Source: a bacterium (lineage in GTDB: Bacteria > ARS69). Taken from it: DNA of 64,000 nucleotides. The number at the start of each line of letters is the position of its first letter. The stretch's first letter is position 1. Both the position numbers and the translations under genes were made by a program. Shown piece after piece: positions 8,425-22,414 of this stretch. The stretch covers positions 11,848 to 75,847 of the forward strand of contig JAXLTI010000011.1 in the NCBI GenBank assembly GCA_046330135.1, read 5' to 3'. Under the pieces are notes generated by a model. It did no database searches. It had not been told where the DNA came from and was given only the letters and a program-made list of their open reading frames with translations.

Positions 8425-9291
8425 TTGGATCCGTCCGCCCTTTCCGCGAAGCGCGACCTCCTGTTCCACGATCTGGCGGCGCTGCGGAATCTCCCTCCGG
8501 CGCCCCGCACGCTCGACGACGTGTGGCGCGTCCTCGGGGAGGAGTCCTCCTCCGCGAGCGCTCTGGCCGACGTGCTCCAGCGCGACCCTGCACTCACCGC
8601 GAAGGTCCTGCGCCTGGCGAATTCCGCGTACTACGGCCTCCCGCGTCCCGCGTCGGAAGTACGCGCCGCCTGCCTGATCCTCGGCTTCGACACGATCCGC
8701 GCGCTCGCCGTGGGCGTGACGGTCCTCGACTCGCTGTCGCGAAGCGTGTCCGAGACGCTCGACCTCGACGCGTTCTGGCGGCACTCGGTGGGAGTGGCCA
8801 CCGCCGCCCAAGCGCTCGCCCGGCGCAACGGCATGGACGCCGGCGCGGCGTTCTGCGCGGGTGTGCTGCACGACCTCGGCAAGCTGATCCTCGTGACGCT
8901 CGGTCCGGCGCGCTGGCGACGCTTCGCCTCGGCGCAGCCGACGGCCGGCGACTCCGCGGAGATCGCGGAGTTCGGCGCCGGCCACGCCGAGGTGGGCGCG
9001 TGGCTCGGCGCTCGATGGCACTTCCCGGCCGAGCTGCTGGAGGCGATCGGCGACCACCACTCGCCGGCCCCGGCCATCGGCCGCTGGGGAGCGCTCGTGA
9101 GATTGGCCGACGGCATCGCGTACCGCGGCGGCTGCCCTTCGCCCGGTCCCGGCGCGCCGGCGGCCGCCGATCCCGCGCTCCTCGCCAAGCTCGTCATCGA
9201 TCCCGAGGCGTTCGCCGCCGTCGAGAACGGCTTCGCGTTCTCGCTCGAGCGCGTGGAGGCCTTCGCGGAAGCCGCGCGGAGCGCCCCATGA
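8425..9291 (+). CDS. HDOD domain signalling protein
   Basis: LANSAYYGLPRPASEVRAACLILGFDTIRALAVGV...HDLGKLIL matches the HDOD (HD-related output) domain. The stop overlaps the next gene's start (ATGA). Confidence 0.7.
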   Translation: MDPSALSAKRDLLFHDLAALRNLPPAPRTLDDVWRVLGEESSSASALADVLQRDPALTAKVLRLANSAYYGLPRPASEVRAACLILGFDTIRALAVGVTVLDSLSRSVSETLDLDAFWRHSVGVATAAQALARRNGMDAGAAFCAGVLHDLGKLILVTLGPARWRRFASAQPTAGDSAEIAEFGAGHAEVGAWLGARWHFPAELLEAIGDHHSPAPAIGRWGALVRLADGIAYRGGCPSPGPGAPAAADPALLAKLVIDPEAFAAVENGFAFSLERVEAFAEAARSAP

Positions 9292-10814
9292 TCGTCGAGC
9301 ACCTGGAACGGATCCTCGAGTGGCTCGAGGGGGAGGGTCCGCACGAGCCGGTGCGCGCCGCGGCCGCGCGCGAGACGCGCGCCGCCCTGGAGCTCGCGCG
9401 GGAGGCGCGCACGCAGGAGCGCGTGCTCCGCGAGATCCTGCACGCGCGCAACGAGGAGTTCGAAGAGAAGGTCCTCGAGCTGTCGCTCGTGAAGGAGGTC
9501 GGCGAGCGCATCGCCGCGGGCCCGGGCGAGGAGGCGCTCCTGCCGCCGATCCTGTCCGGGATCGTGCGCGAGCTGAGCGTGGACGGCGCGGAGATCCTCC
9601 TCGTGGATCCGGAGGGCGAGGGACTGCGCGTCGAGGCGCAGGCGGCGCCCGAGGGAGCTTCGCTCGGCCCGGCCGCCACGCCCGGGCTGCGCGAGAGCGA
9701 GGGAGTGGCCGCGTGGGTGGCGTCCTCGCGCGAGCCGCTCGTCGTGAACGACGTCGCGCGGGACTTCCGCTTCAAGCGCGCGGGCGGCCACTCGCCGCGC
9801 GGCTCCCTCGTGACCGTGCCGCTCGTGGCGTCGGAGCGGGTCTTCGGCGTCCTGCACGTCCACGCGCAGCGGACCGACGCGTTCGGTCCCTCGCACGTGC
9901 GGATCCTCCAGATCGTGGCGGGACAGATCGCGTCGGCGCTGGTGGGTCGGGAGTTGCATCGCAACCTCGTGGCGTTCTCGGGCCGGCTGGAGCGGGAAGT
10001 GCAAACGCGCACGGAGGAGCTGGAGCGGAAGACCGAGGACCTGCGTCGCAAGAACGAGACGATCACCGACCTCTACAGCTCGCTCGAGGAGGCGCAGCGC
10101 GAGCTGGAGGAGAGGAATCGCGAGATCGTGCGGGCGTTGACGTTCAACGACAACATCGTCGAGACGATCAACGTGGGCATCGGCGTGGTGGATCACGATG
10201 GCAAGGTCGTGACCTGGAACCGCGCCATGGAGACCATCTCCGGCGGCATCCTGCCGAAGCAGGTCGTGCTGGGGCGCCACCTCGACGACCTGCCCGAGGA
10301 GGCGCGCGAAGCGTTCGGCCTCGGCCAGGAGCTTCGCGACGCGCTGGCCTTCGGGCGCGCCGCGACGCGCACCGGGCACGTCGTGGACCTGCCGTCGGGG
10401 CTCCGCCTGCACCTGAACCTCCATCACCTGCCGGTCTCCTTCCAGCGGGACGGGCGCCACCACGTCATCACCGTGATCGAGGACGTGACGGCGAACGTGG
10501 CCCTCCATGCCCAGCAGGTGAAGGCGGAGCGGCTCGCCGCGATCACGGCCACGATGGTGAGCGTGAATCACGAGGTGAACAACCCGCTCACCGTCATCCT
10601 GGGCTACGTGCAGATGCTGCTGCAGAGGATGGAGGATCGCGAAGAAGCGGAGCGCTACCTCGTGAGACTCAAGACCGACCTCGCGCGCATCGAGGCCGAG
10701 ACCCTCCGGATCCGCGACATCACGGCGCGTCTGGCGGCGCTGGTCGAGCCCGTCGTGACGTCGTATCCGGCCTCGCCCGGCGTCGCCATGGTGGACCTGG
10801 GCCGTTCGCGCTGA
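9288..10814 (+). CDS. GAF-PAS-HisKA sensor protein with no HATPase_c domain
   Basis: GAF-like segment (LRVEAQAAPEGASLG...VPLVASERVFGVLHV). Coiled coil. PAS-like (IVETINVGIGVVDHDGKVVTWNRAMETISG). H-box HEVNNPLTVILGYVQML. The protein ends ~90 aa later without N/G1/F/G2 ATPase boxes. Confidence 0.7.
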   Translation: MIVEHLERILEWLEGEGPHEPVRAAAARETRAALELAREARTQERVLREILHARNEEFEEKVLELSLVKEVGERIAAGPGEEALLPPILSGIVRELSVDGAEILLVDPEGEGLRVEAQAAPEGASLGPAATPGLRESEGVAAWVASSREPLVVNDVARDFRFKRAGGHSPRGSLVTVPLVASERVFGVLHVHAQRTDAFGPSHVRILQIVAGQIASALVGRELHRNLVAFSGRLEREVQTRTEELERKTEDLRRKNETITDLYSSLEEAQRELEERNREIVRALTFNDNIVETINVGIGVVDHDGKVVTWNRAMETISGGILPKQVVLGRHLDDLPEEAREAFGLGQELRDALAFGRAATRTGHVVDLPSGLRLHLNLHHLPVSFQRDGRHHVITVIEDVTANVALHAQQVKAERLAAITATMVSVNHEVNNPLTVILGYVQMLLQRMEDREEAERYLVRLKTDLARIEAETLRIRDITARLAALVEPVVTSYPASPGVAMVDLGRSR

Positions 10815-10990: not shown

Positions 10991-12367
10991 ATGCGACGGA
11001 TTCTGGGCATCGCGCTCGCCCTCGCGAGTCTCGCCACGGGCCTCGGCGCCGACGGAAAGGGAGAGGCGAAGAAGGCTTTCCTCGTCTATTCCTCCGACGA
11101 GCGTTCCGAGCTCGCCCCGTGCGGGTGACACGCGAAAGATAAGGGCGGGCTGGCCCGGCGGGCCGGCGAGATATTGGAGTACCAGAAGGTCCACCCGTGC
11201 ATGTTCACGTGCACTGCGGGCGACATCCTCGAGTACCCCAAGGCGCAAGGCGGAAGCGAGCAGGAGAAGCGCACCAACGCGGAGTACTTCCTGCGGGCGC
11301 TCGGCCTGATGAAGTACGACGCGGTCGGCCTCGGAGAGGAAGACCTGGCCTTCGGCGTGCCGTACCTGAAAGACGCGGCGCAGAAGCAGGGGATCAAGTT
11401 CGTCTGCTCGAACGCCCTGGACGACAAGACGCGCGAGCCGCTCTTCGATCCGTGGATCATCACGGAGCGGGGCGGCCTCAAAGTCGGGTTCCTGGGGGTG
11501 GTGTCGCCGGAGCGCGTCGTGATCGCGCAGGTGGAGTCCGAGCTGCTCGATCACAAGATCCACCTCGACGATCCCTCCGAGGCGGTGCGGAAGTACCTGC
11601 CGGAGCTGCGCAAGAAGACCGATCTCGTGGTGCTGCTGGCGCACACGGGCATCGAGACGGCGAAGTTCCTCGCGGACGACCTCGGCGTGGACGTCGTCGT
11701 CGTGGGGCACTATCCGGCCATCCTCCAGGAGCCGGAGAAGCACGGGAAGACGCTGCTCGTGATGGCGGGGTCGAAGTCGGATCGCTTCGGGACGCTGGAC
11801 CTCACGCTCGGAGAGACCGGCGGAATCGTGGACTCGAAGGGCGACACCGTGGCGCTCATGATCCAGGGGCCGCACGTGGAGGCCATCCAGCAGCTCTTCG
11901 ACGAGCTGGACAAGAAGACGAAGGACGCCCAGCGCGCCACGCAGCTCGCCGCGCAGCGCGCGCGGGAAGCGGAGCAGGCCCAGAAGGAGACCGCGGCCGT
12001 TCACGCCCGGGGCGGCGTCCTCGGCGCGGAGTCCTGCCGGAGCTGCCACCAGCCCGTCTACGACGCGTGGCTGCAGACGCCGCACGCCACCGCCTTCGCG
12101 ACGCTCGCGCAGGCGGACGCGTGGGACAACCCGGAGTGCATCGGGTGTCACACGACCGGCATGGCGGACAAGCACCACGTGGCGGACGTGAACATCGCGC
12201 CGGAAGTGTGGAACGTGCAGTGCGAGGAGTGCCACGGCTCCGGGTTCCAGCACGCCCGGGACGGCTCGTACATGACGAACGGTGAAGCCACGTGCCGTCG
12301 CTGCCACGACTCGGCGAACAGCCCGCAGTTCGACTACGAGCTCTACAAGAGCTACGGAGTCCACTGA
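10991..12367 (+). CDS. Secreted 5'-nucleotidase/metallophosphoesterase-like domain fused to a tetra-heme cytochrome c. The reading frame is interrupted by an in-frame TGA at 11126-11128, so it is either a recoded (Sec?) gene or a pseudogene.
   Basis: The signal peptide MRRILGIALALASLATGLGADG (10991) is in the same frame as ORF 11174..12367. A single TGA separates them (…ELAPCG*HAKDKGGLARRAGEILEY…). The calcineurin-like pattern continues across the stop (AGDIL…YDAVGLGEEDLAF). C-terminal CxxCH motifs: CRSCH, CIGCH, CEECH, CRRCH. Confidence 0.55.
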
Positions 12368-13395
12368 TCCGGCGATCGAGATCTCCCCGCCCCGAGCCCG
12401 ATGCCGGGGCGGGGAGGCTCGCCCGGCGCTTTCGCGCCGGCGCTCCCCTCGCTCTCTTCCTCGCCGTCCTGATCCTGCCCTCGGCCGCCCGCGCCTGGGG
12501 CGCCCGGACTCACGAGATCATCAACCGGCGCGCCGCGGAGGCGGTCACGGGTCCCGCCGGAGACGCGTGGCGCCCGCTCGCGCGCGCGCTCGGCGCGCAC
12601 GCCAACGACGCGGACGACCGGAAGGGCTCGATGGGTGGAGAGTCCCCGCGCCACTTCGTCGACGCCGACGCGCTGGACCGGCCGCCCTTCGATCACATCC
12701 CGCGAACGCTCGGCGCCCTGAGCCGCAAGTACGGCAAGGACGCGCCACGGAGCTTCGGAGCTGCGCCGTGGGCCGTGGACGAGTCCTATCGAATGCTCGT
12801 GCTGTCCCTGCGGCGCGGGGACTGGGGATCCGCCGGCGCGTGGGCCGCCGATCTCGGCCACTACGTCGCGGACACGCACCAGCCGTTGCACTGCACCGCG
12901 AACTACGACGGACAGCGCACGGGAAACAAGGGAGTGCATCTCCGCTTCGAGGTGGACATGATGGATCGCTTCTTCCGCGAGGAGTCGATCGAGCGGCCGG
13001 CCGCCCTGCCCGACCCGCACGGCGATCCGCTCACGATGTGCTTCGCCTGGGTGAACGACGCCTTCGCGGGCGTGGACGGCATCCTCGCCGCGGACACCCG
13101 CGCGCGCGTCGCGGATCCGTCCTTCGGCGACGTCTACTACGCCGCCCTGTGGGAGGGCACGCAGGACATCGCCACCCGACAGGTGTCCGCGTCCGTCCGG
13201 GACCTCGCGGCGCTGTACGGAGCGGCGTGGGTCGAGGCGGGAAGCCCGTCTCCGCCGCCCGAGCCGCCCTCGTTCCACGCGCTCCCGGTGGCCGCTCTCG
13301 AAGCGCCCGCCCAGGCGCCGCGCCGCCTCTCGCTGCGGGCGCTCGGCCTCGCGGCGGCCGCCCTCACTTCGATGCTCGTGGTCTCGGCCCTCTGA
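12292..13395 (+). CDS. Secreted S1/P1-family nuclease (zinc-dependent). The start codon is uncertain.
   Basis: Signal peptide ...APLALFLAVLILPSAARA precedes the mature WGARTHEII; HYVADTHQPLH; the WG-start plus H/D-rich motifs are typical of S1/P1 nucleases. The only in-frame ATG is at 12292, overlapping the upstream gene by 76 nt. No conventional start lies nearer the signal peptide. Confidence 0.65.
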   Translation: MPSLPRLGEQPAVRLRALQELRSPLIRRSRSPRPEPDAGAGRLARRFRAGAPLALFLAVLILPSAARAWGARTHEIINRRAAEAVTGPAGDAWRPLARALGAHANDADDRKGSMGGESPRHFVDADALDRPPFDHIPRTLGALSRKYGKDAPRSFGAAPWAVDESYRMLVLSLRRGDWGSAGAWAADLGHYVADTHQPLHCTANYDGQRTGNKGVHLRFEVDMMDRFFREESIERPAALPDPHGDPLTMCFAWVNDAFAGVDGILAADTRARVADPSFGDVYYAALWEGTQDIATRQVSASVRDLAALYGAAWVEAGSPSPPPEPPSFHALPVAALEAPAQAPRRLSLRALGLAAAALTSMLVVSAL

Positions 13396-13471: not shown

Positions 13472-13840
13472 ATGGAATCCAAGCGGATCCTGGTCGTCGA
13501 CGATCAAGAGAGCATGCGCGACATGCTCGCGGATCTCCTCGACATGATGGGCCACGAGCCGCGGACGGCCTCGGGCGGGGCCGAGGCCTTGGAGCGCCTC
13601 GACGAGGAGACCATCGACCTCGTCATCACCGACCTCAACATGCCCGAGATGGACGGAATGGAGCTCACGAAGCGCATCAAGTCGCGCACGCCCGAGATGC
13701 CCGTCATCGTCATCACGGGCTACGGGACGTTCAACACCGAGCGCCAAGTGTTGGCGAGCGGCGCCGACGGCTACATTCCCAAGCCCTGCACGATCCACCG
13801 CGTCCAAGAGACAGTCAACGCTGCGCTAGGCGTGAAGTAG
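13472..13840 (+). CDS. Single-domain response regulator (CheY-like receiver)
   Basis: MESKRILVVDDQESMRDMLADLL...DLVITDLNMPEMDGMEL...PVIVITGY...KP; the conserved DD/D/T/K receiver residues are present. Confidence 0.9.
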   Translation: MESKRILVVDDQESMRDMLADLLDMMGHEPRTASGGAEALERLDEETIDLVITDLNMPEMDGMELTKRIKSRTPEMPVIVITGYGTFNTERQVLASGADGYIPKPCTIHRVQETVNAALGVK

Positions 13841-13989
13841 CCTTACGCTCAGATCGCCCGCACGCGACGGTTCCCGCCGGGCCCCCTGTCCGACCTCCGA
13901 GGATCCCCGAAGACCGTCCGGCTCGCCCCTCCGGCGCTCTCCGCGCGCCGTGGTATCCTGCCCGACTGCCGCCCGCCGGGAGCGCGCAT

Positions 13990-14736
13990 TTGTCTTGGGT
14001 CGACGAAGCGTTCGGAAGCTGGTACCCGCTCGTCTACCCGCACCGGGACGTCGCCGAGGCGGCGCGGCTGATCGAGGCGCTGGACGCCGTGCTGGCCTGG
14101 CGGGGTCGACGCGTGCTGGACGTCGGCTGCGGGGCGGGGCGCCATCTCGCGCCGCTGGAGGGGAGGGGGGCGAGGGTGGTCGGCGTGGACCTCTCGGCCA
14201 CGCTGCTCCGCGAGGCGACGCAGGCGCGCGAAGCCGCCGGCGGCGGGTGGGAGCTCGTTCGGGGCGACATGCGGGCCCTCCCGTTCCGGGACGGCTCCTT
14301 CGACGTGGCCACGAGCTTCTTCACCAGCTTCGGCTACTTCGACGAGGCCGAGGATCGACGGGCCCTCGGGGAGGCGACGCGGGTCCTCGCTCCGGGCGGA
14401 CGACACGTGCTGGACTACCTGAATCGCGAGATGGTGCTCGCGCATCCCAACCGGGTCGGCGAGCGGACCGAGAAGGGCTACGTGGTGCGGGAGGATCGCC
14501 GGGTCACGGACGGGGGGCGGCACGCCTTGAAGGAGATCGAGATCCGGGACGCAGCCGGCAAGACGGTGGCCCGCTACCAGGAGCGCGTGACGTTGTACGC
14601 GCCCGCGGAGGTTCGCGGCTTCCTCGCGCAGGCGGGACTCACGACGCTCCGTGAGTGGGGAGGATACGACGGGTCGCCCTTCGACGCCGCGCGCAGCACG
14701 CGGCACGTCCTCGTGAGCGGGAAGGAGCCGGCGTGA
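13990..14736 (+). CDS. Class I SAM-dependent methyltransferase (Methyltransf_11-like), translationally coupled to bshC. Candidate N-methyl-bacillithiol synthase (NmbA-like).
   Basis: TTG start at 13990 in frame. Motif I VLDVGCGAGRHLAPL. Acidic loop VVGVDLS. The stop TGA overlaps the bshC GTG start (GTGA at 14733-14736). Confidence 0.65.
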   Translation: MSWVDEAFGSWYPLVYPHRDVAEAARLIEALDAVLAWRGRRVLDVGCGAGRHLAPLEGRGARVVGVDLSATLLREATQAREAAGGGWELVRGDMRALPFRDGSFDVATSFFTSFGYFDEAEDRRALGEATRVLAPGGRHVLDYLNREMVLAHPNRVGERTEKGYVVREDRRVTDGGRHALKEIEIRDAAGKTVARYQERVTLYAPAEVRGFLAQAGLTTLREWGGYDGSPFDAARSTRHVLVSGKEPA

Positions 14737-16355
14737 CGGTGGCACGTCTGCGGGGAGTCGTCGCGGTCGCTCCGGAGTCCTCGGGCTTCGCGGCGGACTG
14801 GGCGTGGGCGTTGCCTCGCGCGGCGTCGTTCCTGCCGCGGCATCCCGCGCGGGAGTCTGCGTGGACCGAGCGGATCGCGGAGGTGGCGTCCTTGCCGCCC
14901 TCGCGCGCTCTGCTGGAGCGCGCTCGCGCCGACGCGTCGCGCCTGGGCGCCGACGCGCGCGCCCTGGCGTCCGCGGACGCTCTCCTCTCGGGCGACGCGC
15001 TCTGCGTCACCGCGGGCCAGCAGCCCGGCCTCTTCCTGGGTCCCTTGTTCGCCGTGTACAAGGCCTGGACGGCGATCGAGCTCGCGGCGCATCTGGAGCG
15101 CCGCACGGGCCGGCGCGTGGTGCCGCTCTTCTGGAGCGCCGCCGACGACAGCGACTTCGCCGAGATCGCCACGGCCGTGTTGCCGGAGCCGGACCTTCGC
15201 CTCATGCGCCTCTCTCTGGAAGGCGGAGAGCTGCCCGCGGGAGGGATGGTGGGGGATCTCTCCGCCGCCGGCACCGCGCGCGCGCTCGCGTCGGCGGAGG
15301 GCGCGCTCGGCGCGTGGCCGGGTTGGACGAGCCTCGCCGCACGTGCCGGCGCGGCGCTCGAGCGGGCGCGGGATCACGGCGAGATCGCGGCCGCGCTCCT
15401 CTACGGGCTGACTCGCGACACGGGCCTGCTCGTGGTGGACGGTCGCTGGGCGGAGCTTCGCCACGCGGGGGCGGCGCTCTTCGCGCGCTACGCGCAGCAG
15501 CGAGCCGCGGTGGGGGAGAGCGTGCGCGCCGCCGGCCGGCGGCTCGAAGCGGCGGGCTACCGTGCGCGCATCGTCGATGCGTCCACGGAGCAGGCGCTGT
15601 TCGACGCGCGGGACGGTCGCCGTCTTCCCTTCGAGGGCACGGAAGCGGAGCTGCTGGCGCGCATCGCCGCCGCGCCGGAGACGCTCTCGCCGAGCGTCGT
15701 GCTGCGGCCGCTCGTGCAGGACTCCGTGCTTCCGAACGTAGCCACCGTGGCGGGACCCGGCGAGGTGGCCTACCACGCGCAGCTCGCCTTTGCCTACCAG
15801 TCGCTCGGCGTGGGAGTGCCGATCCTCTTCCCGCGCTTCGAAGCCACGCTGGTGCCGGACGGCGTCTTCGATCTCGCGGAGCGGCGCGGCGTGCCTCCCG
15901 TGGATCTCGTGCGGGACTTCGACGGCGCGATGAAGGCCACCGCCGCCGCCGCCTTGCCGCGCGATCTGCGTGACGCGCTCGACGCGCTCGAGGGCGGCCT
16001 GGCCAGATCGGCGGAGGACACGCGCAGCGCCGCCGAGTCGCTGGAGGCGTCGCTCGGGGCGGCGGCCGAGGAGGCGTTCCGGCGATGTCGCGAGGCGGTC
16101 GAGCGCTTCCGCGAGCGGGCGGCGCAGGCGGTGCGGAACGCGGACACGCGCAGCGATCCGTCCATCCGCCACTACCGCGAGCTGCTTCGCCCCCGCGGCG
16201 TTCCTCAGGAGCGCGTGCTCTCGGCGCTCACCCTCGATCTCGCGGGCGCTCCCGAAGGAATGGCCGAAGCGGTTCGCCGGCACGTCGAAGGCGTGATGGA
16301 GGGGCGGCCGGCGCACTGGCTGGCGCCGCTCATCGCCGAGGAGAAGCGTCCGTGA
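14733..16355 (+). CDS. bshC: Bacillithiol biosynthesis cysteine-adding enzyme BshC
   Basis: VTAGQQPGLFLGPLFAVYKAWTAIELA...VVPLFWSAADDSDFAEI matches the BshC/YllA family signature (TGQQxGLxGGPLYxxYK…VPVFWxxxEDHD). GTG start overlaps the upstream stop. Confidence 0.8.
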   Translation: MTVARLRGVVAVAPESSGFAADWAWALPRAASFLPRHPARESAWTERIAEVASLPPSRALLERARADASRLGADARALASADALLSGDALCVTAGQQPGLFLGPLFAVYKAWTAIELAAHLERRTGRRVVPLFWSAADDSDFAEIATAVLPEPDLRLMRLSLEGGELPAGGMVGDLSAAGTARALASAEGALGAWPGWTSLAARAGAALERARDHGEIAAALLYGLTRDTGLLVVDGRWAELRHAGAALFARYAQQRAAVGESVRAAGRRLEAAGYRARIVDASTEQALFDARDGRRLPFEGTEAELLARIAAAPETLSPSVVLRPLVQDSVLPNVATVAGPGEVAYHAQLAFAYQSLGVGVPILFPRFEATLVPDGVFDLAERRGVPPVDLVRDFDGAMKATAAAALPRDLRDALDALEGGLARSAEDTRSAAESLEASLGAAAEEAFRRCREAVERFRERAAQAVRNADTRSDPSIRHYRELLRPRGVPQERVLSALTLDLAGAPEGMAEAVRRHVEGVMEGRPAHWLAPLIAEEKRP

Positions 16356-17083
16356 ACGTCGTCGCGTTCGCCGCGCACCCGGACGATGTGGAGCTGTACG
16401 CGGGCGGGCTGTGCGCGGGGCTCGCGCGGGGCGGCGCGACGCTCGTCCTCGTCGATCTCACGCGCGGCGAGCTCGGGACGCGCGGGGACGTGGCCACGCG
16501 CTCGCGCGAGGCGGAAGAGGCGGCGCGCATTCTCGGTGCGCGCCGCGAGTGCCTGGGTCTTCCGGACGGCGGGCTCGCCGCCACCGACCCCGCGCAGACG
16601 CGCGCCGTGGTGGAAGCGCTGCGGCGTCACCGGCCCGCGCTCGTGATCGCGCCGTGGGAGGACGATCCCCACCCCGATCACCGGGAGGCCTCGCATCTCG
16701 TGCGCCGCGCGCGCTTCCTCGCACGGCTGCCGCGCTACGCCGCGGCGGGCGAAGCCTTCGCCGTGGGGCCCGTGCTCTGGTACGAGCAGAAGACGTCCTT
16801 CGTCCCCGACGTGGTCGTGGACATCGGCGCCGACCTCGCCGCGAAGAGCGCCGCGATCCGCGCGTTCGCCTCCCAGTTCTTCCGCACGCCGGACGACCCC
16901 GTGCGCACGGAGGTCTCGGATCCGGCCTTCCACGAGATGCTCGAGGCGCGCGCCCGCGTGCACGGCTATCGCATCGGTGTGGAGTGGGGCGAGGGCTACA
17001 AGCGCGAAGGCCCGCACGCGGTGACCGACGCGCGGCAGCTCCTCGGGTCGGCCGCCGTGTCCGCCAAGGTGCCGCGGCCGTGA
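16352..17083 (+). CDS. bshB: N-acetyl-alpha-D-glucosaminyl L-malate deacetylase BshB (LmbE/PIG-L family)
   Basis: VNVVAFAAHPDDVELYAGG...HPDHREASHLV (PIG-L family HPDDxE and HxDH motifs). GTGA overlap with bshC. Confidence 0.8.
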   Translation: MNVVAFAAHPDDVELYAGGLCAGLARGGATLVLVDLTRGELGTRGDVATRSREAEEAARILGARRECLGLPDGGLAATDPAQTRAVVEALRRHRPALVIAPWEDDPHPDHREASHLVRRARFLARLPRYAAAGEAFAVGPVLWYEQKTSFVPDVVVDIGADLAAKSAAIRAFASQFFRTPDDPVRTEVSDPAFHEMLEARARVHGYRIGVEWGEGYKREGPHAVTDARQLLGSAAVSAKVPRP

Positions 17084-17091
17084 GGATCGGG

Positions 17092-18201
17092 ATGATCTGC
17101 TACGCGAGCTTCGGCGGCAGCGGGATCGTGGCCACCGAGCTGGGCGCGGAGCTGGCCGCGCGCGGACACGAGGTCCACTTCATCACCACGGACGTGCCCG
17201 TCCGGATGAACCGCTTCCGCGAGAACCTCTTCTTCCACCGCGTCGAGGTGGACACGTACCCGCTGTTCACGCACGCGTCGTACTCGTTGAACCTCGCGGC
17301 GAAGATCCTCGACGTGCTCCGCAACCACGGCCTCGACGTCATCCATTCGCACTACGCCGTGCCGCACGCCGTCTCCGCCTATCTCGCGAAGGAGATGTGC
17401 CCGGGCTGCCCGGTGCGCACCGTCACCACGCTCCACGGGACGGACATCACGCTCGTGGGCCTGCGGCCGTCCTTCTACGAGATCACCCGCTTCTCGATCG
17501 CGAAGAGCGATGCCGTGACCGCGGTGTCGGACTGGCTGCGGCAGAAGACCTACCAGAACTTCCCGGACGTCGGCGAGATCGACGTGGTCCGCAACTTCGT
17601 GGATGCGAATCGCTTCAAGCCCCTGCCGGCCGGACACCGCGACCGCCCGTGGGCGCGCGAGGGGGAATTCGTCCTCATGCACGCGTCGAACTTCCGGCCG
17701 GTGAAGAACATCCCCACGATCATCGACGTGTTCCAGCGGCTGCGCGCCCGCTATCCCGTGCGCCTCCTCATGGTGGGCGACGGCCCGGAGGTGCCCGCCG
17801 CGGAAGAGCGCACGCGCTCTTTGGGCCTCGAGGACGCGGTGCACTTCCTCGGCGCGCAGGAGTATCTCGAGGATCTCCTCCCGCTCGCGGACGTGTTCCT
17901 GCTCCCGAGCCAGCACGAGAGCTTCGGGCTCGCGGCGCTCGAAGCGATGAGCTGCGGGGTGGCCGTCGTGGCCACGAGCGAGGGCGGGACCCGCGAGGTC
18001 ATCCGCAACGGCGAGAACGGCTTCGTGCACGACCCGCACGACGTGGACGGCATGGCCGCCTCCATCGGCGCGCTCCTCGACGATCCGAAGCGCCTCGAGG
18101 CCATGGGCGGCGCGGCGCGGAAGACCGCGGCCGAGGAGTTCCCGGTGGGCGCCGCGGTCGAGCGCTACCTCGCGGTCTACGAGCACGCCCTCTCGCGATG
18201 A
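17092..18201 (+). CDS. bshA: N-acetyl-alpha-D-glucosaminyl L-malate synthase BshA (GT4 glycosyltransferase)
   Basis: MICYASFGGSGIVATELGAELAARGHEVHFIT...; the GT4 C-terminal EXFG motif (QHESFGLAALEAMSCGVAVVAT) is present. Located 9 nt after the bshB stop. Confidence 0.8.
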   Translation: MICYASFGGSGIVATELGAELAARGHEVHFITTDVPVRMNRFRENLFFHRVEVDTYPLFTHASYSLNLAAKILDVLRNHGLDVIHSHYAVPHAVSAYLAKEMCPGCPVRTVTTLHGTDITLVGLRPSFYEITRFSIAKSDAVTAVSDWLRQKTYQNFPDVGEIDVVRNFVDANRFKPLPAGHRDRPWAREGEFVLMHASNFRPVKNIPTIIDVFQRLRARYPVRLLMVGDGPEVPAAEERTRSLGLEDAVHFLGAQEYLEDLLPLADVFLLPSQHESFGLAALEAMSCGVAVVATSEGGTREVIRNGENGFVHDPHDVDGMAASIGALLDDPKRLEAMGGAARKTAAEEFPVGAAVERYLAVYEHALSR

Positions 18202-19037
18202 GCGTGCGCGAGCGGGCGCTCCGGCTCACGAACGACGAAGGCCTCGCGGTGCGGATCGACGTGCGCCTGCCGGACGGGCCGGGGCCCTTCCCGTGCGCCG
18301 TGATCCTGCACGGGTTCAAGGGCTTCAAGGACTGGGGCATGTGGCCGCCCACCGCGATGCGCCTCGCCGAGCGCGGGCTCGCTTCGGTGGCGCTGAACTC
18401 CTCGCGCAACGGCGTGGGAGAGGGCCTCATGGAGTTCACGGAGCTCGAGAGCTTCGCGCGGAACACGCCGCGTCGCGAGGCGAAGGACGTGGCGCTCGTG
18501 CTGGACGCGATCCGGCGCGGCGAGGTGGATGCCGCGCTGGACGGCGGGCGACTCGGCCTCCTCGGCCACAGCCGCGGCGGAGGGATCATGCTCCTCGTGG
18601 CGTCCCGGGATCCGGCCGTGCGGGCCGTGGTGACGTGGGCCGCGATCGCGAAGTTCGATCGGTGGACTTCGCGGGCGAAGGCGGAGTGGCGCGCGCGCGG
18701 CCGCATCGACGTGCCGAACGCGCGCACCGGACAGATCCTCTGGCTCGAGCGCGAGGTGCTCGAAGACCTGGAGGCGAGTCGCGCCGAGTACGACCTCGAG
18801 GCCGCGTGCCGGGCCCTTCGCGCGCCGCTGCTCGTGGTGCACGGCGAGCTGGACGACGCCGTGGACCCGGAGGACGCGGAGCGGCTCGTGGCGTGGGCCG
18901 GCTCGCCGGAGAAGCGCCTGCTCCGCATTCCGCGCACCGGCCACACGTTCGGCGCGGCGCACCCTTGGGGCGGACCGCCGGACGCGTGGGGCCAGGCGGT
19001 GGACGCCACCGCGGACTGGCTCACCACGTACCTGTAG
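18198..19037 (+). CDS. Alpha/beta-fold hydrolase (dienelactone-hydrolase/BAAT-like), last gene of the bacillithiol operon
   Basis: ATGA overlap with bshA. GHSRGG nucleophile elbow. VVHGELDDAVD…GHTF acid/His region. Confidence 0.7.
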   Translation: MSVRERALRLTNDEGLAVRIDVRLPDGPGPFPCAVILHGFKGFKDWGMWPPTAMRLAERGLASVALNSSRNGVGEGLMEFTELESFARNTPRREAKDVALVLDAIRRGEVDAALDGGRLGLLGHSRGGGIMLLVASRDPAVRAVVTWAAIAKFDRWTSRAKAEWRARGRIDVPNARTGQILWLEREVLEDLEASRAEYDLEAACRALRAPLLVVHGELDDAVDPEDAERLVAWAGSPEKRLLRIPRTGHTFGAAHPWGGPPDAWGQAVDATADWLTTYL

Positions 19038-19110
19038 CGTCCCGGCGCTCCGTCGCCGTGATGCACACGCCGCCGAGACGCCGACGCAGGCCTGGCCCGT
19101 CGCGGGCGTC

Positions 19111-19521: not shown

Positions 19522-19656
19522 CCGCTTCCTCCGGGAGACGAAGACCAGAAGATAGGGACGCCGCGGGGCCGGGTCCAGGGGCCCTGCCGCTCCGCACGCC
19601 GCAGGATTCCGGACGGCGTACCCCGCAACTTGCCGGGCCTTCGCGAGGTTGCTACG

Positions 19657-21083: not shown

Positions 21084-21824
21084 ATGGAGAGCGAGGAATA
21101 CCAGCGACTCCGCGAAGAGGAGGAGCGCTACTGGTGGCACGTGGGCCGGCGCGCGCTCCTCGCGGGAATCCTCCGCAAGGGCGTTCCCCCGGACGCGCGG
21201 CGGCGGGGCGTGGACGTGGGCTGCGGATCCGGTTCGAACTTCGCCCTCCTCGCGCCGTACGGTCGCTTCTTCGGCACGGAGATCTCTCTCGAGGCCTGCG
21301 TGGCCGGTGACGAGCGCCCGCCGCGGCCCGTCGTGCTCGCGCGCGGCGAAGCGCTGCCGTTCGCGAGCGCGTCGCTCGGCATCGTGACGATGTTCGACGT
21401 GCTGGAGCACGTGGCCGCGGAGGACTCGTTCTTGACCGAGGTGCGGCGCGTGCTCGGTCCGGAAGGTCTTCTCGTGATCTCCGTTCCGGCCTACATGTTC
21501 CTCTGGAGCGACCACGACGTGAGCCTGCATCATCAGCGGCGCTACGTGCGCCGCACGCTGCGTGCGTCGCTGGAGCGGAACGGTTTCCGGGCCCTGCGAG
21601 TGAGTCACGCCATGGCGTCGATCCTCTTGCCCGTGGCCGTCGTGCGCGGGCTGGGCCAGATCCTTCCGCGGCGCGGGCCGCCGCGCTCCAGCTACGTGTC
21701 CACTCCGGAGCCCCTCAACTCTCTCCTCGCGGGACTGCTGCGTCTCGAGGCGAGGTGGCTTGCTCGGGCCGACCTCCCGTTCGGGACCTCGGTGCTGGCC
21801 CTCGCGCAGAAAGGCGCCTCGTGA
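21084..21824 (+). CDS. Class I SAM-dependent methyltransferase
   Basis: VDVGCGSGSNFALLAPYGR (motif I), LPFASASLGIVTMFDVLEHV (post-I/II). Ends with a GTGA overlap onto pdxH. Confidence 0.75.
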   Translation: MESEEYQRLREEEERYWWHVGRRALLAGILRKGVPPDARRRGVDVGCGSGSNFALLAPYGRFFGTEISLEACVAGDERPPRPVVLARGEALPFASASLGIVTMFDVLEHVAAEDSFLTEVRRVLGPEGLLVISVPAYMFLWSDHDVSLHHQRRYVRRTLRASLERNGFRALRVSHAMASILLPVAVVRGLGQILPRRGPPRSSYVSTPEPLNSLLAGLLRLEARWLARADLPFGTSVLALAQKGAS

Positions 21825-22414
21825 CACCAATGCCTCTTCCGGGCGAGGTGGTGGAGCGGTTCCGCAAGCTCCAGGAGCGGGCCGCGAAGACCGACCTTCC
21901 GGAGCCCACCGCGGTGACGCTGGCGACCTCGGACCGACAGGGGCGGCCGTCCTCGCGCATGGTGCTGCTCAAGGCCTTCGACGAGCGGGGCTTCGTGTTC
22001 TACACGAACCTGGAGAGTCGAAAGGGTCGCCAATTGCGTGAGAACCCGTGCGTCGCGCTCACGTTCTACTGGCCGCCGCTCGGCGAGCAGGTGCAGGTGG
22101 AGGGCAGCGTGGAGCCCGTGACCGACGCCGAGGCGGACGCATACTGGGCGACGCGACCGCGCGAGAGTCGACTCGGAGCATGGGCGTCGCTGCAGTCCGA
22201 AGCGATGCCGAGCCGGTGGACGCTGCTGCGGCGCTTCGCCGAGGCCGCCCGTCGCTACGGGGTGGGCGAGGTTCCTCGACCGCGGCACTGGTCGGGGCTG
22301 CGCGTGGTTCCCAACCGGGTGGAGTTCTGGCGCTCCAGCAAGTTCCGCCTGCACGACCGCGAGAGCTGGACGCTCGAGGACGGCCGCTGGGTGAAGCGTC
22401 GCCTCTATCCGTGA
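21821..22414 (+). CDS. pdxH: Pyridoxamine 5'-phosphate oxidase
   Basis: VTLATSDRQGRPSSRMVLLKAFDERGFVFYTNLESRKGRQLRENPCVALTFYW...RLHDR...W; classic PdxH. The start is GTG 21821 or ATG 21830. Confidence 0.88.
   Translation: MTPMPLPGEVVERFRKLQERAAKTDLPEPTAVTLATSDRQGRPSSRMVLLKAFDERGFVFYTNLESRKGRQLRENPCVALTFYWPPLGEQVQVEGSVEPVTDAEADAYWATRPRESRLGAWASLQSEAMPSRWTLLRRFAEAARRYGVGEVPRPRHWSGLRVVPNRVEFWRSSKFRLHDRESWTLEDGRWVKRRLYP

Follow-up and report, generated by a model that had tools for sequence, protein, structure and literature searches.

Which low-molecular-weight thiol would be made by a bacterium whose bacillithiol genes stand in one chain behind a methyltransferase gene, and what is the hydrolase gene that closes the chain? 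The question is raised by positions 13990-19037 of a 64,000-nucleotide stretch of contig JAXLTI010000011.1 (assembly GCA_046330135.1), referred to here as the window, from a bacterium of an uncultured candidate phylum. Five plus-strand genes chained by start/stop overlaps encode a class I S-adenosylmethionine (SAM)-dependent methyltransferase resembling the bacillithiol N-methyltransferase NmbA, the bacillithiol enzymes BshC, BshB and BshA, and an alpha/beta esterase. We consider it likely that these genes make up a single operon with coupled translation (nmbA-bshC-bshB-bshA-esterase) and that the predicted thiol is N-methyl-bacillithiol, a protective compound, the pathway being assigned from the family membership of the encoded proteins.

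Translation of the five genes is uninterrupted for 248, 540, 243, 369 or 373 (bshA, depending on the start) and 279 residues, respectively. The window is about 70% G+C, and mechanically generated lists of open reading frames (ORFs) are therefore crowded with spurious frames. The start of the methyltransferase gene, TTG 13990, was confirmed by its homologues, which begin MSWV... at the same point, and the esterase gene ends with TAG at 19035-19037. Between these ends, the methyltransferase stop and the bshC start share GTGA at 14733-14736, the bshC stop and the bshB start share GTGA at 16352-16355, and the bshA stop and the esterase start share ATGA at 18198-18201, all exactly where a preliminary description of the window had placed them. 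For the remaining junction that description had given a 9-nt gap between bshB and bshA (17083/17092). The ATG at 17092 does exist in frame, but it would leave a spacing of 8 nt, and an in-frame GTG at 17080, which overlaps the bshB stop as GTGA 17080-17083, is the better start. If bshA is read from this GTG, the protein begins VRIGMICY... and its residues 1-371 align with positions 1-374 of the BshA equivalog profile TIGR03999, so that the alignment starts at profile position 1, with the ATG lying four codons further in. The gene call of one relative (L082) has the same 4-nt bshB/bshA overlap. Because GTG 17080 fits the BshA profile from its first position and agrees with this gene call, all four junctions of the operon are probably 4-nt overlaps.

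BshC, BshB and BshA each scored above the cut-off of the corresponding NCBIfam equivalog model (Table 1), which bears out the identities that they had been given in the preliminary description. All three genes lie in a single operon with the nmbA-like gene, and the co-occurrence of NmbA with BshABC is the published predictor of N-methyl-bacillithiol, by which 1765 species, from validly published phyla only, were listed in 2025 (PMC12719100). Bacillus subtilis has the same three enzyme families, with bshA and bshB1 in the mgsA operon and bshC apart, together with panE (PMC5790435). Bacillus differs from the window in having no nmbA and in carrying its bacillithiol genes at two loci, whereas the window has them side by side as bshC-bshB-bshA, with nmbA in front.

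The predicted methylation depends on the leading gene. The defining NmbA is the CT1040 protein of Chlorobaculum tepidum (CtNmbA), deletion of which abolishes N-methyl-bacillithiol and causes bacillithiol to accumulate, N-methyl-cysteine never having been seen (Hiras et al. 2018, PMC6282198); both CtNmbA and the Paenibacillus polymyxa enzyme (PpNmbA) accept bacillithiol in vitro, but neither glycine nor glutathione (PMC12719100). Comparison with CT1040 had been set beforehand as the test of the claim, made in the preliminary description, that the methyltransferase is a strong NmbA candidate, and the claim passed it: when all PDB sequences were searched, the best solved-structure match was CtNmbA itself (9RI2; E = 4.2e-37, 131.5 bits), with the next entry at 58.9 bits. 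In this match, residues 3-242 of the 248 (~97% of the length) align with residues 16-258 of the 266 of CtNmbA; the pairwise alignment (E = 2e-44) shows 36% identity over 247 columns. Orthologs of CT1040 have been delimited by a BLAST E-value of at most 1e-20, similar length, coverage above 80% and identity above 25% (Hammerstad et al. 2025, PMC12719100, section 4.1), and the window protein lies within all of these limits. Its identity to CtNmbA is comparable to that of the Paenibacillus (33-38%) and Flavobacteriia (33%) homologues, which come from lineages in which NmbA activity or N-methyl-bacillithiol has been shown experimentally.

The resemblance between these two class I methyltransferases of about 250 residues extends to individual positions. 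In an alignment of 22 sequences, the residues common to the window protein and CtNmbA outside the SAM glycine loop include W3, Y12, Y16, H18-R19, R51-H52, D93-M94-R95, the stretch F-T/S-S-F-G-Y-F at 111-117, K181, E198, G224, Y226 and R238. SAM motif I, sought as VLDIAxGxG, is present as VLDVGCGAG at 42-50 (VLDxxCGAG-RH in both enzymes), the DMR and FxSFGYF motifs are common to both, and R70, K198, Y134 and F135 of CtNmbA are conserved, the aromatic pair Y134/F135 corresponding to Y116/F117 in window numbering. A profile built only from homologues of Chlorobi/Ignavibacteria, Paenibacillus and Bacteroidota, the lineages with verified NmbA, gave the window protein 200 bits and other family members 170-315 bits, against 80 bits for CypM, the nearest characterised non-NmbA enzyme, and 5.6 bits for the other methyltransferase of the window. 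In a neighbour-joining tree the NmbA family was monophyletic against CypM. NCBIfam and Pfam searches returned generic class I methyltransferase domains, with no NmbA-specific match among the matches listed. A UbiE-type reading, which the preliminary description had named as the finding that would count against NmbA, was rejected: the UbiE/MenG models fell well short of their thresholds, as did the best NCBIfam model, a daptide methyltransferase, with 74.7 bits where 175 is the cut-off. The methyltransferase of the window has the same sequence as MFN8180109.1, annotated publicly only as 'class I SAM-dependent methyltransferase', and on this sequence evidence it can probably be named NmbA. The earlier prediction of N-methyl-bacillithiol is thereby supported, as a prediction from NmbA-family membership and from the coupling to bshC. 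In C. tepidum, as in the window, nmbA co-occurs with bshA, bshB and bshC; there the genes are scattered (CT0548, CT1419, CT1558 and CT1040), whereas those of the window overlap in a single operon with the methyltransferase gene at its head.

The five-gene order is present in all six long contigs of relatives (L082 and L084-L088), whose methyltransferases share 51-62% and whose esterases share 53-65% identity with their window counterparts. Since this order recurs in six relatives whose proteins have diverged to 51-82% identity with the window's, the arrangement of the five genes is not a chance juxtaposition. Conservation extends upstream, the block in all six running from a cytochrome c554-like protein and a hypothetical protein through a CheY-like regulator, directly upstream of the methyltransferase gene, to bshC, bshB, bshA and the esterase gene, mostly with 4-nt overlaps. 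One esterase orthologue, at 68% identity, is labelled Candidatus Eiseniibacteriota, and the window methyltransferase is sister to that of an Eisenbacteria metagenome-assembled genome (MAG) in the neighbour-joining tree; by sequence, the nearest named relatives are tentatively Ca. Eiseniibacteriota MAGs. One Ca. Eisenbacteria MAG contig (L016:6-3472) has the methyltransferase gene, bshC and bshA with no bshB between, unlike the window and its closer relatives.

Synteny beyond this clade was sampled at 80 loci encoding NmbA-family members, one genome per species, which were searched with the window proteins. The gene directly downstream of the methyltransferase gene on the same strand is bshC at 51 of the 80 loci, and the full order of methyltransferase gene, bshC, bshB and bshA occurs at 19, which belong to Thermoanaerobaculia/Acidobacteriota, Planctomycetota, Chloroflexota, Hydrogenedentota, Fibrobacterales and unclassified MAGs. 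These clusters (L008, L012, L025, L037, L066, L069 and others) share the order and strand of the first four genes with the window but are without the esterase gene. In the Gemmatimonadota only the nmbA-bshC pair was found (L001-L007, L010, L015, L017, L019, L021, L022, L026, L027, L036, L038, L040, L048, L051-L053, L058, L061, L071 and L074), with no bshA or bshB in the sequence downstream of nmbA (up to 8 kb; shorter at some loci), and the genes for the last two pathway steps therefore appear as a conserved linked unit. The methyltransferase gene is solitary in Paenibacillus, Bacteroidota and Chlorobi/Ignavibacteria, whereas in most of the sampled genomes outside Bacillota, Bacteroidota and Chlorobi nmbA lies directly upstream of bshC. 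The coupling of the methyltransferase gene to bshC, whose absence in relatives had been named in advance as a second ground for abandoning the prediction, is thus clearly kept in close relatives and across phyla. The accompanying statement that bsh genes are usually scattered needs qualifying, since clustering is not unusual outside Firmicutes, Bacteroidota and Chlorobi and is the common state in at least six other phyla. No statement on the genomic context of nmbA and the bsh genes was found in the literature, including the texts available to search of the NmbA papers of Hiras (2018) and Hammerstad (2025), and the widespread nmbA-bshC adjacency may be a modest unreported regularity.

Other genes occupy the position after bshA elsewhere. 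In Thermoanaerobaculia/Acidobacteriota it is held by a gene of the UPF0029+DUF1949 (IMPACT/YigZ) family in five of five loci examined, and in a Phycisphaeraceae MAG (L028) by an ORF (8560-9312) with a chlorite-dismutase-like domain.

In the proposed pathway, BshA would couple UDP-N-acetylglucosamine (UDP-GlcNAc) with L-malate, BshB would deacetylate the resulting GlcNAc-malate, and BshC would add cysteine to give bacillithiol. Since CtNmbA and PpNmbA act on bacillithiol, the NmbA-family enzyme is proposed to transfer a methyl group from SAM to the amino nitrogen of the cysteine in reduced bacillithiol, yielding N-methyl-bacillithiol, which is the predicted cellular thiol because BshA, BshB and BshC occur together with an NmbA-family methyltransferase. 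The 4-nt overlaps in the sequence suggest that the enzymes would be made together from one transcript, and the esterase has been inherited along with the operon in this lineage. According to a 2018 review, no in vitro reconstitution of the BshC reaction had been achieved, and nothing relevant to its reconstitution was found in the later literature.

The fifth gene product is assigned by its motifs, catalytic triad and predicted fold to the GHSR-type esterases, a family defined by PsEst3 of Paenibacillus sp. R4 through a GHSR(A/G) nucleophile motif and an HGF(R/K) oxyanion motif (PMC9980389). The corresponding motifs of the window protein are HGFK at 38-41 and GHSRG at 123-127, and the triad S125/D219/H249 is invariant. 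Across 23 homologues G39, K41, G123, H124, S125 and G127 are invariant, and F40 and R126 are conserved in at least 90%. The AlphaFold2 model (pLDDT 93.5) matched 7QJN with a Foldseek TM-score of 0.93 and PsEst3 with 0.78-0.87. The structure 7QJN is that of enzyme 306 of Ca. Kryptobacter tengchongensis, which came from a screen for poly(ethylene terephthalate) hydrolases (PMC9772341). PsEst3 and enzyme 306 share with the window esterase both motifs, the Ser-Asp-His triad and the fold; they differ from it in that the genes of the window esterase and its orthologues show translational coupling to bshA, whereas the two characterised enzymes have no reported link to bacillithiol genes and no known natural substrate.

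Several observations weigh against the operon's producing N-methyl-bacillithiol, and some of them would be expected if the methyltransferase were instead an NmbA-family paralogue acting on another acceptor, such as GlcN-malate, cysteine (free or activated) ahead of its ligation, or some other amine, in which case bacillithiol or a differently modified derivative would be made. The experimentally verified NmbAs all come from lineages in which nmbA is solitary, none coming from the operon-linked clades, which separate from every verified NmbA in the neighbour-joining tree. W20 and H31, residues of the substrate entry site according to the CtNmbA paper, are Ala and Pro in the window protein, in which W16, R70 and K198 are conserved; the Paenibacillus homologues also differ at these positions (Ser and Lys). 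The methyltransferase gene stands directly before bshC rather than after the last biosynthetic gene, and ligation of N-methyl-cysteine was raised as a formal possibility by Hiras et al. (PMC6282198). The AlphaFold2 model of the methyltransferase (pLDDT 92, with a four-strand cap) resembles CypM (TM-score 0.78) more closely than 9RI2 (0.70-0.72), although among the fold matches the highest sequence identity is to NmbA. The 9RI2 crystal structure has a narrow 'molecular basket' Cap domain, the topology of which AlphaFold models mispredict according to the NmbA paper (PMC12719100), and the better match of our model to CypM echoes this published misprediction; as the fold search does not separate NmbA from CypM, CcbJ and SeMT, it was used as evidence neither way. 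The window, moreover, is 64 kb of a genome in which a second, closer NmbA paralogue may lie elsewhere. A different acceptor is nonetheless improbable in our view, given that the window protein has an identity to CtNmbA and a profile score inside the range seen in the verified lineages, that R70, K198, Y134, F135, DMR and FxSFGYF are conserved, and that the two characterised enzymes act on bacillithiol and the C. tepidum deletion accumulates it. The boundaries of the operon are likewise drawn from the overlaps alone, a scan of the locus having found no sigma-70-like promoter and no terminator above chance, which would suit five genes that are merely adjacent and tightly spaced through genome compaction in a high-GC lineage. 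Four consecutive 4-nt overlaps, an order kept in relatives despite the divergence given above, and the recurrence of the first four genes in several phyla make this reading very hard to sustain.

For the esterase, the preliminary description had suggested an enzyme acting on bacillithiol conjugates or thioesters, and this suggestion fared differently inside and outside the clade. Within it, the esterase gene follows bshA at 8/8 loci, two further partial loci having been added to the six long contigs. Outside it, no bshA adjoined an esterase homologue (at most 48% identity) at any of the 46 loci with at least 1.2 kb of upstream sequence among 80 metagenome loci scanned; a 50%-identical homologue (L089) lies in unrelated context with no bsh gene adjoining; and no homologue turned up at a distance of up to 8 kb from nmbA when 80 genomes of other phyla were searched. 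The esterase is more likely an accessory or a passenger than a core pathway enzyme. We regard as doubtful the reading in which the enzyme is devoted to bacillithiol, for instance as a thioesterase or esterase that cleaves S-acyl-(N-methyl-)bacillithiol, or some other anionic derivative carrying malate, and so serves recycling or detoxification. Against it, besides the distribution beyond the clade, are the unrelated genes that other lineages place after bshA, such as UPF0029/IMPACT in Thermoanaerobaculia, and the known bacillithiol-conjugate amidases, which are BshB-like and not alpha/beta hydrolases. In its favour are the 4-nt overlap with bshA, the retention of the linkage in the clade despite divergence of the esterase to 53-65% identity, the positively charged active site of PsEst3, whose natural substrate is unidentified and which was found with bound sulfate and malonate (PMC9980389), and the invariant basic residues K41, K44, R126 (at the level given above), R155, R165 and R176. 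It is suggestive that an anion-binding esterase is encoded beside the genes of a thiol that carries malate, the support specific to bacillithiol being the synteny of one lineage. Slightly more doubtful still is the narrower proposal that a GHSR-type esterase was recruited to the pathway in this lineage, where it might hydrolyse S-acyl-(N-methyl-)bacillithiol thioesters or another malate-bearing anionic derivative; if true, it would provide the first natural substrate for this esterase family and a fifth, previously unrecognised step of bacillithiol metabolism.

Table 1. Genes and sequence features of the locus, with the genes that follow bshA in Thermoanaerobaculia/Acidobacteriota
Feature	Position	Strand	Evidence or remark
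nmbA-like class I SAM-dependent methyltransferase, 248 aa; predicted bacillithiol N-methyltransferase	13990..14736	+	Top PDB match CtNmbA 9RI2
bshC, 540 aa; cysteine-adding enzyme	14733..16355	+	TIGR03998 equivalog, 295.5 bits (cut-off 265.8); Pfam Rossmann-like_BshC and CC_BshC
bshB, 243 aa; BshB1-type GlcNAc-malate deacetylase	16352..17083	+	TIGR04001 equivalog, 230.1 bits (cut-off 182.5); Pfam PIG-L
bshA, 373 aa; N-acetylglucosaminyl-L-malate synthase	17080..18201	+	TIGR03999 equivalog, 478.8 bits (cut-off 273.7)
GHSR-type alpha/beta esterase, 279 aa	18198..19037	+	PDB sequence matches 7QJN (E 7e-43) and PsEst3 7V8U (E 1e-23)
Shine-Dalgarno-like GGGAG	13978..13982	+	7 nt upstream of TTG 13990; read from the sequence
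Weak terminator-like hairpin after the esterase stop	19090..19107	+	1 site against 1.6 expected from shuffles; not above chance
Multihaem cytochrome c554-like protein	11174-12367		Conserved upstream block
367-aa protein	12292-13395		No Pfam match; weak S1-P1 nuclease match in relative L084
Single-domain CheY-like response regulator	13472..13840	+	Pfam Response_reg, 107.7 bits; 149 nt before the methyltransferase gene
msrB, 136 aa	19111..19521	-	Pfam SelR, 176.4 bits; convergent, 73 nt from the esterase stop
Second class I methyltransferase	21084-21824		No detectable similarity to CtNmbA
Pyridoxamine-5'-phosphate oxidase family gene	21827-22414		After the second methyltransferase gene
UPF0029+DUF1949 genes after bshA	L037:12193-12783; L059:10306-10890; L064:9014-9625; L079:12246-12851; L043:7424-8035		Second lineage-specific 'fifth gene'

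The convergent msrB reported in the preliminary description was confirmed in the window, but this adjacency is kept in only three of the six relatives (L082, L084 and L088), msrB being absent from the position in L085, L086 and L087, and the 80 genomes sampled from other phyla yielded no msrB close to nmbA. An out-of-clade esterase homologue (L144:1216-2315, 44% identity) has a convergent msrB directly downstream and no bshA upstream, a hint that the esterase gene and msrB may stand side by side irrespective of the bsh genes. In L084-L088 a Na+/alanine symporter gene lies between the esterase gene or msrB and a gene for a hypothetical protein of about 445 residues; the window has no symporter gene there (19522-19653), so this boundary of the locus has been rearranged, and the contig of L082 ends too soon to tell. 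The second methyltransferase gene recurs downstream of the operon in L085, L086 and L088, followed by the oxidase gene in L088; the oxidase gene is also present in L087.

Taken as an annotation, the result is a sound assignment of a known pathway in an operon layout that is common and not special to the window, and the picture of how the bacillithiol pathway works is unchanged; what is mildly new is the widespread nmbA-bshC adjacency together with the clade-specific esterase. The predicted use of N-methyl-bacillithiol now reaches an uncultured candidate phylum left outside the 2025 survey, which searched only validly published phyla (PMC12719100). The clade-specific coupling of the esterase gene to bshA offers a starting point for testing what an orphan esterase family does, and the conserved nmbA-bshC pairs would be natural co-expression constructs toward BshC chemistry. 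The adjacency itself provides independent support for the role assigned to NmbA and may serve as a simple genomic rule for predicting the type of thiol.

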